DNA of 7,343 nucleotides, from the IMG/VR virus record IMGVR_UViG_2737471865_000005, positions 1 through 7,343 of that record. One strand, written 5' to 3'. The position numbers were made by a program, and so were the translations under genes. The stretch comes from a virus. Lineage: Duplodnaviria > Heunggongvirae > Uroviricota > Caudoviricetes. The notes beneath the pieces were generated by a model. It had not been told where the DNA came from, did no database searches, and saw nothing but the letters and a program-made list of their open reading frames with translations. Each line of letters starts with the position of its first letter. Within the stretch, counting starts at the first letter, position 1. Below are positions 1,008 to 7,269 of the stretch, piece by piece.

Positions 1008-1861
1008 GCACCATCCTGAAATGGGCGGGAAATAAAACCGCCATTATGTCCGAACTGAAAAAGCATCTTCCTGCTGGCCCGCGACTGGTTGAACCTTTCG
1101 CGGGTTCCTGTGCAGTGATGATGGAGACGGAGTACCCCAGCTATCTTGTTGCGGATATTAATCCTGATTTAATCAACCTCTATAAAAAGGTTGCTGCTGA
1201 TTGTGAATCATTTATATCTCGCGCCAGAGTTTTATTTGAGATCGCAAACAGGGAGGTAGCTTATTACAACATAAGGCAGGAGTTTAATTACTCAACTGAG
1301 ATTACTGATTTCATGAAAGCGGTATATTTCCTGTATCTCAATCGTCACGGTTACCGTGGTTTATGTCGCTATAACAAGAGCGGGCATTTCAACATTCCCT
1401 ACGGTAATTATAAAAATCCGTATTTCCCTGAAAAAGAAATTCGCGCATTTGCAGAAAAAGCCCAGCGAGCAACGTTTATCTGCGCCAGCTTTGATGAAAC
1501 GCTGGCGATGTTGAAGGCGGGGGATGTGGTGTATTGCGATCCGCCGTATGACGGTACGTTTTCCGGCTATCACACTGATGGTTTCACTGAAGATGACCAG
1601 TATCACCTGGCATCCGTTCTTGAACATCGGTCATCAGAAGGACATCCGGTCATTGTTTCTAACAGTGACACATCCCTGATCCGTTCGCTGTATCGCAATT
1701 TTACTCACCACTATATCAAGGTAAAACGCAGCATCGGTGTGGCAGCTGGCGAGGGTAAATCAGCAACAGAAATCATTGCTGTTTCCGGGCCGCGCTGCTG
1801 GTTGGGATTTGATTATTCGCGTGGCGTGGATAGTTCTGCCGTGTACGGAGTGCGTGCATGA
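1004..1861 (+). CDS. dam: DNA N6-adenine methyltransferase, Dam-like (about 285 aa from the ATG at 1004; the track ORF extends upstream to 944)
   Basis: N-terminal motif I region ([11 protein letters not shown]) followed later by the catalytic DPPY motif ([12 protein letters not shown]), the order seen in Dam-type (alpha-class) adenine methyltransferases. GGAGGTG Shine-Dalgarno at about 994-1000 precedes the ATG at 1004. The stop overlaps the GpA start (ATGA at 1858-1861). Confidence 0.9.
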
Positions 1862-4245
1862 GCCATGCTGATATGAACAACTGCAGCGGCTTTAACGAGG
1901 CCGCCGCAGCATTCTCATGGAACAGCCCGAAAAAGGCTATTAACCCTTATCTGGACCCGGCGGAAGTTGCGCCGGTTTCTGCGCTTTCAAACCTGATCAC
2001 TCTGTACGCTGCCGATAACGAGCAGGAACAACTGCGCCGCGAGGCACTGAGTGATCAGGTCTGGGAGCGTTATTTCTTTAATGAATCCCGTGATCCTGTC
2101 CAACGCGAAATGGAGCAGGATAAGCTCATTAGCCGGGCAAAGCTGGCGCATGAGCAGCAGCGTTTTAATCCGGACATGGTCATACTGGCGGACGTTAAAG
2201 CCCAGCCCTCCCATATCAGCAAGCCGCTGATGCAACGTATTGAATACTTCAGCAGCCTGGGCAGGCCAAAGGCTTATTCCCGCTATTTGCGTGAGACGAT
2301 TAAGCCATGTCTGGAACGACTGGAGCATGTACGCGACAGTCAGCTATCCACTTCTTTTCGCTTTATGGCAAGCCATGAAGGGCTGGACGGCCTGCTGATC
2401 CTGCCTGAAATGAGTCAGGATCAGGTGAAACGCCTGTCTACTCTTGTCGCTGCGCATATGAGCATGTGTCTTGATGCCGCTTGTGGTGATTTGTACGCCA
2501 CCGATGATGTTAAGCCAGAAGAAATCCGCAAGACATGGGAAAAGGTGGCAGCAGAAACCCTGCGACTGGATGTCATACCGCCTGCGTTTGAGCAACTCCG
2601 CCGGAAAAGAAACCGCCGTAAACCCGTACCCTATGAACTCATTCCGGGTTCGCTGGCGCGTATGTTGTGCGCCGACTGGTGGTATCGGAAATTATGGAAG
2701 ATGCGTTGCGAATGGCGGGAAGAGCAGTTGCGTGCTGTTTGCCTGGTCAGCAAAAAAGCATCTCCCTATGTCAGCTATGAAGCCGTGATGCATAAACGTG
2801 AGCAGCGCCGTAAGTCGCTGGAGTTTTTCCGTTCTCATGAACTGGTGAACGAAGACGGCGACACGCTGGATATGGAGGACGTGGTAAACGCCAGTAGTAG
2901 CAACCCGGCGCATCGCCGCAATGAGATGATGGCATGTGTTAAAGGTCTGGAGCTTATCGCGGAAATGCGCGGTGACTGCGCCGTTTTCTACACCATCACC
3001 TGTCCGTCACGTTTCCATTCCACGCTAAATAACGGCAGGCCCAACCCAACCTGGACAAATGCGACGGTAAGACAAAGCAGTGATTATCTGGTCGGCATGT
3101 TTGCTGCATTTCGTAAGGCGATGTACAAAGCCGGATTGCGCTGGTATGGCGTGCGGGTGGCTGAGCCGCATCATGACGGTACAGTTCACTGGCACCTGTT
3201 GTGTTTTATGCGCAAAAAAGATCGCCGCGCCATTACTGCTTTGTTGCGTAAGTTTGCCATCAGTGAAGACCGCGAGGAGCTGGGTAATAACACAGGACCA
3301 CGCTTTAAGTCTGAGCTGATAAACCCGCGCAAAGGTACGCCAACAAGCTACATCGCGAAATACATCAGTAAGAACATTGACGGGCGTGGTCTGGCTGGCG
3401 AGATCAGCAAGGAAACGGGTAAATCCCTGCGTGATAACGCTGAATACGTTAATGCCTGGGCGTCTCTTCATCGTGTTCAGCAATTCCGCTTCTTTGGCAT
3501 TCCGGGGCGTCAGGCTTACCGTGAACTGCGATTGCTGGCTGGTCAGGCGGCAAGGCAACAGGGGGACAAAAAAGCAGGTGCGGCGGTACTGGATAACCCA
3601 CGCCTTGATGCCATCCTGGCTGCTGCTGATGCTGGTTGTTTTGCCACCTACATCATGAAGCAGGGCGGCGTACTGGTTCCCCGCAAATATCACCTCATCA
3701 GAACCGCTTATGAAATCAACGAAGAGCCGACCGCCTATGGCGATCACGGCATTCGTATTTATGGCATCTGGTCACCCATTGCAGAGGGCAAGATCTGCAC
3801 TCATGCAGTGAAGTGGAAAATGGTTCGTAAGGCCGTTGACGTTCAGGAGGCTGCAGCCGACCAGGGCGCTTGCGCCCCTTGGACTCGTGGCAATAACTGT
3901 CCCCCTGTTGAAATTTTGAACCAATCAGGGGGCGAATTACCAGAAACCGAAGAAACTGACGCGCTGCCGGACCTTCACGATCTGAGTGCGAAGGAACGGC
4001 GGGAGCTGACAGCCAGGCTGAGGCTGGTAAAACCGAAACGGCGGAAAGGGTACAAACAGGAAGTTAACGAGCAGCAGCGCCAGCAGCTCGACGCTGAGTT
4101 GAGGTCCAGAGGGTTTGAAGCGAGTGAAACAGAGGTGGATCTGCTTTTACGTGGCGGCAGCATTCCGTCCGGGGCCGGGCTGCGCATTTTCTACCGCAAC
4201 CAGCGGCTACAGGAAGATGATAAATGGCGGCAGTGGTATTCGTGA
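1858..4245 (+). CDS. A: Rolling-circle replication initiation endonuclease, P2 GpA-like (795 aa)
   Basis: Size close to P2 gpA. Contains an HUH-type metal-binding motif (TVHWHLLCF) and a downstream Tyr-x3-Tyr pair (YIAKYISK), as expected for the HUH nickase superfamily. Follows Dam as in 186-like phages. In P2 the origin lies inside the A coding region, so an ori probably lies within this CDS, but I cannot position it. Confidence 0.92.
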
Positions 4246-4334
4246 GTATCGTCTGAATATTCCTGTTTGGTGATCCCATCAGAGGTATCTGATTGAAATT
4301 GAAAAAAGGGTTTTACAAATAGAAATCTCTTCTA

Positions 4335-4354
4335 TACTGTATATATAAACAGTG
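4335..4354 (+). promoter_or_regulatory. LexA operator (SOS box) within a putative SOS-regulated promoter
   Basis: TACTGTATATATAAACAGTG matches the E. coli LexA consensus TACTGTATATATATACAGTA at 18 of 20 positions, including the CTGT-N8-ACAG core. It sits in an AT-rich intergenic region about 50-65 nt upstream of the next + strand ORF, overlapping candidate -10 hexamers (TATACT/TATATA), with TTGAAA/TTTACA-like -35 candidates upstream. Confidence 0.75.
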
Positions 4355-4401
4355 GATATACATACAGTTATGTTTGTCCAGTAGTAGTGATAGGAGGGAA
4401 A

Positions 4402-4590
4402 ATGCAGGATTACCTTTTGGAGTCTTTGAAGCTCCAGCGCATTGATTTTTTTATCAAGCTTGTAGCGGCTAGCGAGTGTGATGATGCAGAAAAGCAGCTG
4501 GCTCTTCAGTGGGCTTCTGAGTTGACCGATGAGCTGATGGCGAAAATTCGTAGCCATGAATACAGCCGATCAATGGATATTTCCAGTTAG
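4402..4590 (+). CDS. Small SOS-module protein (62 aa from the ATG at 4402), possibly the N-terminal portion of a Tum-like antirepressor
   Basis: AGGAGG Shine-Dalgarno at about 4392-4397 with the ATG at 4402. First gene after the LexA box, at the position tum occupies in phage 186. Followed 8 nt later, in another frame, by a DinI-like ORF; the two together total about 140 aa, close to the roughly 146 aa I recall for 186 Tum. Confidence 0.55.
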   Translation: MQDYLLESLKLQRIDFFIKLVAASECDDAEKQLALQWASELTDELMAKIRSHEYSRSMDISS

Positions 4591-4598
4591 GGGTCCCT

Positions 4599-4832
4599 AT
4601 GCGAATTGAGATAATGATCGATAAAGAGCAAAAGATTAGCCAGGTAACCTTGGACGCTCTGGAGTCCGAGCTTTACCGCAACCTGCAGCCCATCTATCCA
4701 AAGACAGCTATTCGCATCCGTAAAGGGTCGGCAAACGGCGTTGAGCTGAGTGGCTTAAAGCTTGATGAAGACAAAAAGCGGGTAATGGAAATTATGCAGC
4801 AGGTTTGGGAAGACGACAGCTGGCTGCACTGA
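4599..4832 (+). CDS. DinI-family protein (77 aa); may correspond to the DinI-like C-terminal half of a Tum-type antirepressor
   Basis: Aligns by eye with E. coli DinI along its whole length (MRIE start, DAL..EL segment, K-E/D-D-K-K/Q-R, EI(L/M)QxxWE near the C-terminus). Lies in the LexA-controlled module. Confidence 0.85.
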   Translation: MRIEIMIDKEQKISQVTLDALESELYRNLQPIYPKTAIRIRKGSANGVELSGLKLDEDKKRVMEIMQQVWEDDSWLH

Positions 4833-4936
4833 GGAACGTTGCTGGCGGCAGGACTTGATACTGACGCCAGCAAGGTTGAACAACGAGCGGGGCGAGGCGT
4901 TAGCCCATCATTGGTACTTTATAATGGTTTTGTTAT

Positions 4937-5923
4937 CTATAATTGCAGAATGTTTTTAATTCTCACAATCGATTCATCAAAAGTATCAGCTATGTGGTAA
5001 ATGTTCTTTTTGCTCAAGCTATTAACCCAGGTGATAGTAGATTCTTTATCCTTGTCTACTATGTAGACGTCGGCTGAAGTTTTTTCAATTTCAGACCAAA
5101 TATGCTCATCATTTGGATTTATTTTAAGTCCAATAATGAATATCTTGGATGAACGTTCAACCTCAGAACGAAACTCTTCCTGCTGATACTTAACAAATGA
5201 GGGGCAGTGCAATACGCTTTTTTTGGGATGATATAATGCAACTGCGGGTGAGAGGGCAGAATCACTTTCGCAGTATGCAATCACGTCTTGCTCATCGTTG
5301 TAAATATCAATTGAACCATCGAATATTGCAGAGTTCTCGCAATCAGGTAATTCGAAATCGATATTAACGATATTTGCAACTGGTATGAAGTTTACTGAGC
5401 CATGTATTTTTAATACCGGTATGTTATTTCTATTGCGCTTCGATGAGTGATATTGAACAAGACAGCCAACAGAGCATATAGCTTGTTCAATTAATAGGTC
5501 GTAATTAGTTGTTGCCATACATATGTTTTTTCTTTTTTTTAATAGGTTAAACAGTTTTATGTAGGTGTTTCCTTTCTCGACCCGAAATTGTGCAAGATAG
5601 GCGCACATCTGCTTTAGGAGGTGAGTTGTCTCGCAATTTCGTTCATTGAAAAAATTAATCATTCCTTGTTCAGGATCTGCAATGAAACTCTCCAATAGAG
5701 CGCCATCAATAGTTGAAGCAACTCCACCTTTTTCACGCATGCGGATAAGCAGATCTTTACCAAGAGGTGGATTGGATGGACTACATGGACCGCTGCCAAA
5801 ACTCGCACCTGCGCCAAATAAAAATAGAACTGCCATATATCCTCCGAAATATGAGTATTTATGAATCATTTTCCTCAATTTCTGCCACAAAGGATATAGT
5901 GGGGCAAAGGAATTGTGCTGCAT
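4937..5923 (-). CDS. SIR2 (sirtuin)-like family protein, candidate NAD+-consuming anti-phage defence protein (328 aa as the longest ORF; alternative starts give 310 or 299 aa)
   Basis: Glycine-rich NAD-binding motif FLFGAGASFGSG (GAGxS type), a TTNYD motif resembling sirtuin TQNID, and KIHGS about 34 residues later, where defence-type SIR2 domains carry the catalytic His. The gene is markedly AT-rich (about 30-37% GC in the 60-nt lines I counted, against about 50% in the flanking phage genes). Start is ambiguous: the ATG near 5836 is preceded by GGAGGA, the ATG near 5869 by GAGGA, and the first ATG (5923) has no obvious Shine-Dalgarno. Confidence 0.8.
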   Translation of the reverse strand: MQHNSFAPLYPLWQKLRKMIHKYSYFGGYMAVLFLFGAGASFGSGPCSPSNPPLGKDLLIRMREKGGVASTIDGALLESFIADPEQGMINFFNERNCETTHLLKQMCAYLAQFRVEKGNTYIKLFNLLKKRKNICMATTNYDLLIEQAICSVGCLVQYHSSKRNRNNIPVLKIHGSVNFIPVANIVNIDFELPDCENSAIFDGSIDIYNDEQDVIAYCESDSALSPAVALYHPKKSVLHCPSFVKYQQEEFRSEVERSSKIFIIGLKINPNDEHIWSEIEKTSADVYIVDKDKESTITWVNSLSKKNIYHIADTFDESIVRIKNILQL

Positions 5924-5973
5924 GACTATGCCGCATGAATCCGCATGATCGTTTGAGGATCGTTTTAGCTGAG

Positions 5974-6000
5974 GCCCGCCAGGAATGGCGGGCTTTTGCT
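5974..6000 (+). terminator. Putative rho-independent terminator, + strand orientation
   Basis: Perfect 8-bp GC-rich inverted repeat GCCCGCCA / TGGCGGGC around a GGAA tetraloop, followed directly by TTTTGCTT. The T-run is only on the + strand side. Confidence 0.5.
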
Positions 6001-6043
6001 TATGTCATGCAGGCGCATGAAAACCACTACATAAAGCGGGCAG

Positions 6044-6219: not shown

Positions 6220-7269
6220 TCAGCCTCGTTTGCTCTTAAGTCCTAAGTCATAGGCTTCAAAACGGATCACCTCTTCACCAAGCCAGTTGTTAAGCTCCTG
6301 CAGTCGCTTTTGCAGTGGCATCAGTTCATTGCGGACGAAAACACGGCTCGCCTTTTCCACATCACCGAAGCCGCCAGTGTTGTTGGGAATGATACCCATC
6401 ATTTGCGGCGGTACGCGGTGTGCCGCCATCATGTCGTCCCGACTCACGTTCTTGATGTTCAGAAATTCATCTTTCGCTGCGACTTCTGACAACGGGATGA
6501 TCTGAAGCCCGTCCTTTTTGCCGTTAGGCGAGTACATAAACAGGTTACGGAAGTTACCAGGACCTTTGGCACTTTTCATCGCGTTGCGGAGATTGTTCAC
6601 ATCCTCCTGATTCTGCGCTGCATCGGTCATGTACATGATGAAGCCAGCATGACTGCCGTTAATGTAATACTTTCGACGGAACAGCGTGGCGGACTCGTTG
6701 AGCAGGGCGGATGGAATGGCAGAAAGGTAACCTGGCAGACCATAAATCTCCTGGTTGATATCCGGCTCCATCAGGTGGAAGACGTTACCTTTTGTGAACT
6801 GATACGGCTGTGTCGTCAGGCTGTATTGCACAAACCAGTATGTTTCAAGGTCAAGCCCGCGCCGGGTGTATTTTGCCAGTGCAGGCTCCAGCGAAATAAC
6901 TTCACCGAACCGGTTCGTGCGCTTCTCCAGGTAGCCGTTACCAAAAACCAGATAGTCCTGCACAAAACGGGTAAATGCCTGCTGACTGAGAAGACGATGC
7001 GGAATATAGGTACTGCTGATAATGTCACGCTTAACACTGATGGGGGAGCTGTGATGCACGGCGGCGCGGAAGGTTCGCGCCAGGCCGTCAAAACTCACTG
7101 GCGGCTCATACCAGCGATCTGTCTGTACGCATTCCACATAGTCCAGCAGTTCGCGGCGGTCCAGAACAGGAACAGGATCGCCAAAGCTGAAAGCCTCTGC
7201 TGTTGGGCCATTGCCTGGTTTTGAATTGTGATCAGTTGTTGCTCGCTTATTATTTCTACGTTTGCTCAT
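6220..7269 (-). CDS. Q: Phage portal protein, P2 gpQ-like (349 aa)
   Basis: Full-length ORF of the size of P2 portal protein (about 344 aa), with N-terminal region resembling gpQ as I recall it (basic N-terminus, then AEAFSFGDP.PVLDR...RWYEPPVSF.GLARTFRAAVHHSS). Positioned next to cos and transcribed towards it, as in P2/186. Confidence 0.92.
   Translation of the reverse strand: MSKRRNNKRATTDHNSKPGNGPTAEAFSFGDPVPVLDRRELLDYVECVQTDRWYEPPVSFDGLARTFRAAVHHSSPISVKRDIISSTYIPHRLLSQQAFTRFVQDYLVFGNGYLEKRTNRFGEVISLEPALAKYTRRGLDLETYWFVQYSLTTQPYQFTKGNVFHLMEPDINQEIYGLPGYLSAIPSALLNESATLFRRKYYINGSHAGFIMYMTDAAQNQEDVNNLRNAMKSAKGPGNFRNLFMYSPNGKKDGLQIIPLSEVAAKDEFLNIKNVSRDDMMAAHRVPPQMMGIIPNNTGGFGDVEKASRVFVRNELMPLQKRLQELNNWLGEEVIRFEAYDLGLKSKRG

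Follow-up and report, generated by a model that had tools for sequence, protein, structure and literature searches.

A probable two-cistron SOS operon encoding a predicted CI antirepressor and a free DinI-like protein in a Fels-2-type, P2/186-like prophage

In phage 186, Tum is a single protein of 146 aa with a DinI-like C-terminal half, just as an earlier note on this DNA had stated, and the question raised by the locus considered here is whether a prophage that presents an N-terminal and a DinI-like part in separate reading frames carries a broken tum gene or a pair of genuine ones. The window (the whole 7.3-kb stretch of 7,343 nucleotides that was analysed) contains an ORF of 62 aa that ends at a TAG codon and is followed after 8 nt by a DinI-like ORF of 77 aa in another frame, an arrangement that the note had described correctly and for which it had offered two readings. 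Either a small N-terminal protein is encoded next to a free DinI-like protein, or a tum gene has been interrupted by a 1-nt deletion or a sequencing error, leaving a prophage that may have lost its inducibility. The reading favored here, with a probability of roughly 0.92, is that positions 4312-4877 comprise an intact two-cistron SOS operon of a Fels-2-type, P2/186-like (Peduoviridae) prophage, from which a LexA-controlled CI antirepressor and a free DinI-like protein would be produced.

The window corresponds to the right-hand early region of a P2/186-like (Peduoviridae) prophage and, apart from the operon itself, bears the following genes:

within the window, small early genes
1004-1861, Dam-type methylase
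1858-4245, homologue of the replication endonuclease gpA (Pfam Phage_GPA, 1e-126)
4937-5923, minus strand, 328-aa gene with a weak SIR2 signature, convergent to the operon
6220-7269, minus strand, portal gene

The SOS operon directly follows the gpA homologue, which is the genomic position of a Tum/TumA-type antirepressor, and the gene order is that found in 186, PSP3, Fels-2 and Cartapus. A closely related prophage in the complete genome of E. coli 22AR0750 shares 97% identity with the window over 7185 bases and 99.8% identity over 4250-4900, and both genes of the operon are annotated there. This prophage appears complete across the ~21 kb examined, from the integrase to the tail-fibre genes, and includes integrase, CI, apl-like, cII, fil, replication, portal, terminase, capsid, lysis and tail genes. 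The cI gene lies outside the window, and the cognate repressor is known from this 97%-identical prophage alone, where CI (WP_021543552) is 91% identical to that of Fels-2.

The elements of the operon are arranged as follows:

4312-4340, plus strand, putative p95-like SOS promoter (-35 TTTACA at 4312-4317, 17-nt spacer, -10 TACTGT at 4335-4340)
4335-4354, plus strand, LexA (SOS) box TACTGTATATATAAACAGTG, 18/20 consensus positions matched
4350-4369, plus strand, second, weaker LexA-like box CAGTGGATATACATACAGTT, 15/20 consensus positions matched, overlapping the first box by 5 nt
4402-4590, plus strand, tumA-like gene for a 62-aa predicted antirepressor (PHROG 698), ATG at 4402 and TAG at 4588-4590
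4589-4598, plus strand, intercistronic junction, TAG stop and 8-nt spacer with an AGGGG Shine-Dalgarno-like run
4599-4832, plus strand, tumB/dinI-like gene for a 77-aa DinI family protein, ATG at 4599 and TGA at 4830-4832
4835-4877, plus strand, GC-rich hairpin after the operon, possible partial terminator (RNA fold -36.5 kcal/mol, z = -2.3)

Control by LexA, implied in the title of the earlier note, is supported by the near-consensus box at 4335-4354 upstream of the first ORF; its core motif CTGT-N8-ACAG occurs once in the window (4337-4352), against 0.06 occurrences expected by chance. A LexA box stands at the equivalent place in Fels-2, Cartapus, SopEPhi, Klebsiella ST13phi12.1, Yersinia MLG42, PSP3, 186 and phages of the ESSI-2 type, and the box, which where it overlaps the promoter is a mark of Tum/TumA-type antirepressors, is conserved in all relatives examined. 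The promoter is putatively assigned by analogy with the annotated p95 of 186 (TTCACA-N18-TACTGT), in which the LexA site begins with the 6 nt of the -10 element, and the putative -10 of the window likewise overlaps the LexA box. A generic scan for sigma-70 promoters and intrinsic terminators returned no calls in 4200-5000. The second LexA-like box has counterparts that match 15-16 of the 20 consensus positions at the equivalent site of Fels-2, SopEPhi, Klebsiella ST13phi12.1 and Yersinia MLG42; speculatively, it might also tune the threshold of induction.

Each cistron is preceded by its own candidate signal for translation. An AGGAGG ribosome-binding site at 4392-4397 lies 5' of the first ATG, and the 8-nt spacer at 4591-4598, GGGTCCCT, combines with the AG of the TAG stop to form the AGGGG run, 5 nt 5' of the second ATG. 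The 77-aa ORF is in the +2 frame relative to the 62-aa ORF, and the single ORF that typifies the fused Tum of 186 is replaced here by two, the first closed by the TAG at 4588-4590 and the second opened by an ATG in another frame. The hairpin that follows the operon has no T run on its 3' side and was not called in the terminator scan; it is a possible partial terminator by comparison with t95a of 186, which lies at the equivalent place.

The 77-aa protein belongs to the DinI family. It matches Pfam PF06183 with 84 bits (cut-off 24.2) over residues 15-76 of 77, and E. coli DinI (1GHH) with an E-value of 5e-9 over residues 1-75, including the EI(L/M)Q..WE..D.W pattern at the C-terminus, and the profile match extends over the full domain with its acidic C-terminal helix. 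The protein also matches phrog_189 (positions 71-148) and is 92% identical to TumB of PSP3, and its alignment to 186 Tum starts exactly at the internal GTG that is annotated in the 186 record as the start of a free, truncated, DinI-like Tum. On the basis of family membership, a probable role for the 77-aa protein is to bind RecA filaments, modulating RecA co-protease activity and the SOS signal. Action on RecA filaments is likewise the annotated role of the truncated Tum of 186.

The 62-aa protein was related to Tum by profile methods alone. BLASTP produced no alignment of this protein with either 186 Tum or PSP3 TumA, nor of PSP3 TumA with 186 Tum, and on its own would suggest an absence of similarity to Tum, a conclusion that was overturned by the profile comparisons. 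The alignment of the upstream ORF with the N-terminal half of Tum proposed in the earlier note thus failed with BLASTP and succeeded with profiles, over residues 5-43. With its close family members alone (Neff about 1.5), hhalign gave a weak match to Tum (P = 0.002, probability 14%). Among 1.84 billion representative proteins, a profile search recovered 86 relatives with identities down to about 30%, of which 85 are short, the exception being a 1205-aa repeat protein, and none is fused to DinI. The diverse relatives share the motif L(Q/E)RI(D/E)L(I/V)(A/T)RLV...C...(D/E)KELA(L/I).W(I/V)AEL. A broadened family profile built from 47 members, none of them Tum, aligned colinearly with residues 5-43 of 186 Tum at 32.9 bits (E-value 2.4e-12 as a single comparison, Z=1), whereas 5000 shuffled versions of Tum residues 1-70 scored at most 8.6 bits. 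The direct match of this profile to PSP3 TumA is marginal (3.7 bits), and the link between the two therefore runs via 186 Tum and the PHROG profiles, which were matched as follows:

62-aa protein of the window: phrog_698 (5e-34), phrog_8554 (1e-8), phrog_1993 (0.005)
PSP3 TumA: phrog_1993 (3e-32)
186 Tum, residues 1-70: phrog_1993 (1.5e-23), phrog_8554 (3.4e-12), phrog_698 (5.9e-6)

By these profiles, the antirepressor part of Tum, the portion outside the DinI domain, has a diverged homologue in the 62-aa protein, which belongs to a branch other than that of PSP3 TumA. The AlphaFold model of the protein is a helical hairpin formed by helices 2-23 and 28-61 (pLDDT 92), with the invariant Cys26 placed in the predicted turn. 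A Foldseek comparison of this model with the PDB found generic helical hairpins only (best E-value 0.97), and searches of Pfam, PADLOC and the sequences of the PDB gave no match. PHROG 698 carries the label ‘unknown function’, and annotation pipelines call the gene a ‘hypothetical protein’ or, in some records, a ‘levan regulatory protein’.

The two-gene arrangement is already known: it is common, under selection, named since the record of PSP3 and functional in a close relative. The GenBank record of PSP3 (AY135486) describes tumA as ‘similar to 5' end 186 tum; UV induction of prophage’ and tumB as ‘similar to dinI and 3' end of 186 tum’. That tum is split by a stop codon in both Fels-2 and PSP3 was stated by Lemire et al. 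(2011), whose statement draws on a personal communication from G. E. Christie and on Bunny et al. (2002; PMC151935), the original report for Fels-2, as cited there. The induction of SopEPhi in the inflamed gut has been attributed to SOS-driven expression of Tum (reviewed in PMC9827884). Functional evidence comes from DuoHS, a P2-like prophage of E. coli HS, in which mitomycin C causes no lysis of either a Δtum or a lexA(Ind-) strain, while the SOS reporter still fires in the Δtum strain (Phollow, PMC12055606). The supplementary primers used to construct this deletion fuse ...ATAGGAGGAAAG-ATG to TGA-GGTGACTTTT-ATGCGCATTG (PMC12055606), and when mapped they coincide exactly with the ATG and the TGA of the Fels-2 and Cartapus versions of the 62-aa ORF. 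The deletion removes 183 nt and leaves the spacer and the dinI-like cistron intact, and the gene required for induction of DuoHS is therefore the upstream 62-aa ORF of a split arrangement. For close homologues, then, the literature has demonstrated both the LexA control of the upstream gene and its requirement for induction by mitomycin C, and by analogy the window copy would have a working promoter, a product that binds CI, a companion that binds RecA and the capacity to be induced.

The same layout is widespread. A DNA search of phage genomes located the module in 67 records, and a protein search with the 62-aa ORF retrieved 66, nearly always with exactly 62 codons followed by a DinI gene of 77 codons. 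The pair is carried by isolated or inducible phages, namely Fels-2, SopEPhi, RE2010, SEN8, Cartapus, Yersinia phage MLG42 and many Klebsiella phages; the record of MLG42 gives Yersinia pestis EV76-CN as the host and a dog anal swab as the source. Escherichia phage 500465-1 was left out of the comparisons, its record showing local frame disturbances in both ORFs and being judged of low quality. The module is also present in 1060 of 5426 complete E. coli genomes, and among the 30 E. coli matches listed, the first gene is annotated as a hypothetical protein in all 30 and a DinI-family gene is annotated in the 28 that reach the second gene. Nucleotide identities indicate that the two cistrons recombine independently and have had different histories: the window and Cartapus are 95% identical in the dinI-like gene and 82% in the 62-aa ORF, and the order is reversed between Cartapus and Fels-2, which are 98.9% identical in the 62-aa ORF and 82% in the dinI-like gene. 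In phages of the ESSI-2 type, a TumA-like gene (about 45% identical) lies behind a LexA box and dinI is absent, so the upstream gene can be regarded as an autonomous unit.

These comparisons bear directly on the two explanations that treat the ORFs as parts of one Tum, in the one as remains of a broken gene and in the other as pieces joined in translation. The former holds that a 1-nt indel or a sequencing error near 4560-4590 has interrupted a 186-type tum, with an SOS-non-inducible, domesticated carrier of the neighbouring cargo gene as the result, and it draws on the combined length of the ORFs (62 and 77 aa, near the 146 aa of 186 Tum), on their separation by 8 nt and on the difference in frame. 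The latter holds that the ORFs are joined by programmed frameshifting or stop-codon readthrough into a Tum-like fusion of ~140 aa beside the short products, and it is prompted by the very short gap and by the example of 186, where fused and free DinI-like forms are made from one gene. Across relatives the first ORF ends in TAG, TGA or TAA, the spacer measures 8, 10, 11, 12 or 13 nt, or as little as 3 nt in PSP3, and the second ORF is shifted in frame by 0, +1 or +2 relative to the first, with both ORFs of MLG42 and PSP3 in one frame and parted by just a stop codon and a short spacer. A junction that varies in stop, spacer and frame is unlike the product of a recent frameshift or a shared lesion. 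It is equally at odds with a conserved recoding signal, which would have to direct a shift of +2 here, +1 in Fels-2 and Cartapus and 0 in MLG42 and PSP3, and neither a slippery sequence nor the spacer is conserved among the relatives; programmed recoding was rejected on the ground that the relative frame is not conserved. A purine-rich Shine-Dalgarno-like run is instead present in the spacer of every relative, where the dinI-like cistron has its own ATG, and the ESSI-2-type phages make do without dinI altogether. Strong purifying selection acts on both ORFs, with dN/dS values, estimated at dS of about 0.5-2 for most pairs, far below 1. For the 62-aa ORF they span 0.03-0.25 (0.06-0.14 when one member of the pair is the window copy) and for the DinI-like ORF 0.02-0.10. 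An identical 62-aa protein is encoded on 132 contigs, and the 22AR0750 prophage, an independent sequence, agrees with the window almost completely across the module, which makes a sequencing error unlikely. The recurrence of this split across many phages and over 1000 E. coli genomes, the start codon and Shine-Dalgarno-like run provided for each cistron, the lack of any fusion to DinI among the 86 profile relatives and the function of the split version in E. coli HS all count against a broken gene, which is a vanishingly unlikely explanation; the joining of the ORFs in translation is very improbable as well. The two ORFs are, on this comparative evidence, two independent cistrons and not a frameshifted 186-type tum. 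Of the alternatives put forward in the earlier note, the genuine two-gene arrangement is therefore the one upheld, by the conserved layout, the variable junction and the selection on both ORFs. Related functional phages do share the two-ORF organisation that a broken tum would not lead one to expect, and the proposal of a non-inducible, domesticated prophage finds no support in the sequence, the 22AR0750 prophage appearing complete and the HS homologue being functional.

A different kind of objection accepts the two genes and disputes the role of the first, taking the 62-aa protein to be an SOS-induced accessory protein unrelated to CI, with induction dependent on something else. The failure to match Pfam, PADLOC or PDB sequences, the ‘unknown function’ of PHROG 698 and the generic helical hairpin fold, with its want of a significant structural match, would all be consistent with such a role. 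So would the contrast in conservation between the 62-aa protein, at 82-98% identity, and the CI repressors of the same phages, at only 36-91% overall. The conserved part of CI is its N-terminal DNA-binding domain, however, and identity of the 62-aa protein tracks identity of this domain (Spearman rho 0.72) more closely than that of the rest of CI (rho 0.33), a comparison of 21 non-independent pairs from 7 phages that is a lead rather than a result. An accessory role is further opposed by the homology that the profiles show with the antirepressor portion of 186 Tum, which involves the same residues, the same position and the same type of LexA-controlled promoter, and by the fact that deletion of the 84%-identical gene of E. 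coli HS abolishes mitomycin C-induced lytic growth and leaves the SOS reporter unaffected. A role unconnected to CI is highly unlikely in light of this evidence. The correlation also suggests that the N-terminal domain of CI may be the contact surface of the 62-aa protein. A bolder proposal, tentative and on balance doubtful, is that the conservation of the antirepressor across diverging repressors reflects a broad-specificity inducer that acts in trans. If the protein recognised a conserved surface of the N-terminal domain of CI, a single TumA-like protein made in the SOS response could relieve repression in several heteroimmune P2-like prophages, or satellites, that share a cell, a cross-talk like that shown for the antirepressors of Gifsy and Fels-1.

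The operon would be expected to work as follows. In the lysogen, host LexA would occupy the box at 4335-4354 over the -10 of the promoter and keep the operon off. Upon DNA damage, activated RecA would promote the self-cleavage of LexA and the operon would be transcribed. The first cistron would yield the 62-aa helical-hairpin protein, a stand-alone equivalent of the N-terminal antirepressor of 186 Tum that corresponds to PSP3 TumA and to the ‘Tum’ of DuoHS. This protein would bind the CI immunity repressor non-covalently and keep it off its operators, much as 186 Tum is known to bind CI (Shearwin 1998, as cited in PMC3121763), whereupon the early lytic promoter would fire and the prophage would be induced. 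The second cistron, translated from its own ribosome-binding site, would supply the free DinI-like protein to act on RecA filaments.

The distinction between a broken gene and an operon has consequences for how such prophages are read. A reader acquainted with 186 alone could take the common split arrangement for a pseudogene, and the prophage that bears it for a non-inducible or domesticated one. The presence of a complete, selected SOS-induction module beside the SIR2-like cargo gene implies that this cargo is probably mobile. Moreover, the label of TumA-type antirepressor could be given to PHROG 698 and to the corresponding ‘hypothetical protein’ entries of RefSeq, which occur in roughly one in five complete E. 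coli genomes.

Among known systems, the closest parallels are tumA/tumB of PSP3 and STM2728/STM2726.1 of Fels-2, which, like the pair in the window, follow the replication gene A behind a LexA box and consist of an upstream ORF of 60-62 aa, a stop codon, a short spacer and a DinI-like ORF of 77 aa. The window proteins are 82% (62-aa) and about 84% (DinI-like) identical to those of Fels-2, and the upstream protein belongs to the Fels-2 branch (PHROG 698), whereas PSP3 TumA represents that of PHROG 1993. The junctions differ, with a spacer of 8 nt and a +2 shift in the window, 10 nt and +1 in Fels-2, and 3 nt with both ORFs in frame in PSP3. The tum gene of DuoHS (ECHS_RS04495) is of the same family and is likewise the upstream 62-aa cistron of a split operon; it is LexA-controlled, needed for induction by mitomycin C and matches the Fels-2/Cartapus ORF exactly at its ends. 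At about 84% identity to the window protein it is another allele. The Tum of 186 is expressed from a LexA-repressed promoter with a -10 that overlaps the box, as is putatively the case in the window, and homology links its residues 5-43 to the 62-aa protein and its C-terminal half to the 77-aa protein, but in 186 both parts reside in one polypeptide and the N-terminal identity to the 62-aa protein is about 20-24%. The 186 operon also continues into orf97, whereas the window lacks orf97 and its operon is followed by the convergent SIR2-like cargo gene. The dinI-gfoA/gftA operons of the Gifsy prophages are more distant, with dinI placed first, antirepressors and repressors of other families, and lambdoid rather than P2-like phages as their carriers, and yet they share the same logic, in which a LexA box governs a DinI homologue and a small antirepressor that binds and inactivates a non-cleavable repressor (PMC3121763).

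The tum operon of the window, of Cartapus (L004) and of Fels-2 (L002) is, judged from pairwise nucleotide identity, internally mosaic. Across window 4402-4832, the dinI-like gene of the window shares 95% identity with that of Cartapus, whereas the upstream 62-aa open reading frame, which encodes the TumA-like predicted antirepressor, shares only 82%. Between Cartapus and Fels-2 the pattern is the opposite, with 98.9% identity in the 62-aa reading frame and 82% in dinI, and this reversal implies recombination at or near the junction of the two cistrons.

The antirepressor was also compared with CI, the immunity repressor and its presumed target. The CI comparison took as its reference the cI gene of the 97%-identical prophage of E. 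coli 22AR0750, set against CI of Fels-2, Cartapus, SopEPhi and Klebsiella ST13phi12.1:

L005 (prophage of E. coli 22AR0750), 7934-8566: cI

Across the same phages, antirepressor identity is 82-98% compared to 36-91% for CI. The conserved portion of CI is its N-terminal domain, typified by the motif S(K/Q)STMANR..RD.FPA.W.I.C.LETG, and it is with this domain that antirepressor identity correlates (Spearman rho 0.72, versus 0.33 for the remaining CI; 21 non-independent pairs from 7 phages).

A TumA-like gene preceded by a LexA box is also found in two phages of the ESSI-2 type:

L011 (Cronobacter phage ESSI-2), 861-1068: LexA box with TumA-like gene downstream
L012 (ESSI2_ev015), 858-1113: LexA box with TumA-like gene downstream

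The encoded proteins of about 70 aa display 40-48% identity to the Fels-2-type proteins compared. A DinI-like gene is absent from both phages, and convergent genes and the portal gene come directly after the TumA-like gene, which bears no annotation of any kind in the ESSI-2 record.

Upstream of the tum operon, a second LexA-like box, weaker than the main box and sharing 5 nt with it, is discernible in the window:

Window 4350-4369: putative second LexA-like box, CAGTGGATATACATACAGTT, 15/20 against the consensus, GTG-N10-CAG

The equivalent site scores 15-16/20 in Fels-2, SopEPhi, Klebsiella ST13phi12.1 and Yersinia MLG42; in 186, PSP3, Cartapus and the ESSI-2 type, scored likewise, no second box attained this range.

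PHROG 698, 8554 and 1993 each carry the label "unknown function", despite which PSP3 tumA and the tum deletion of DuoHS, the P2-like prophage of E. coli HS, identify the function behind them. Members of the 62-aa family are labelled "levan regulatory protein" in several source records (P0032, P0111 and Klebsiella phage ST340-VIM1phi10.2). In region 701-1160 of the record for Escherichia phage 500465-1 (L010; CP025900), which is unannotated, local frame disturbances occur in the 62-aa reading frame (...EERGWLCSGVSELT...) and also in the dinI-like one, and these look like sequencing or assembly errors rather than biology.

Beyond the tum operon lies a convergent cargo gene:

Window 4937-5923, minus strand: cargo gene, 328 aa, weak SIR2 signature

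Its matches comprise Pfam SIR2_2 (6e-5, under the cut-off), PADLOC SIR2 (1.3e-5) and PDC-S25 (4e-5), and it is a candidate defence gene; a 299-aa version in E. coli 22AR0750 is labelled "hypothetical protein" in RefSeq. The gene is placed between the tum operon and cos because the linear genome record of Cartapus aligns, at its right (cos) end, with the window as far as 6010 (region about 5919-6010). This position is the variable slot occupied by old/tin in P2, and the same slot, from tum operon to cos, holds different genes in each of Fels-2, Cartapus, SopEPhi, PSP3 and 186.
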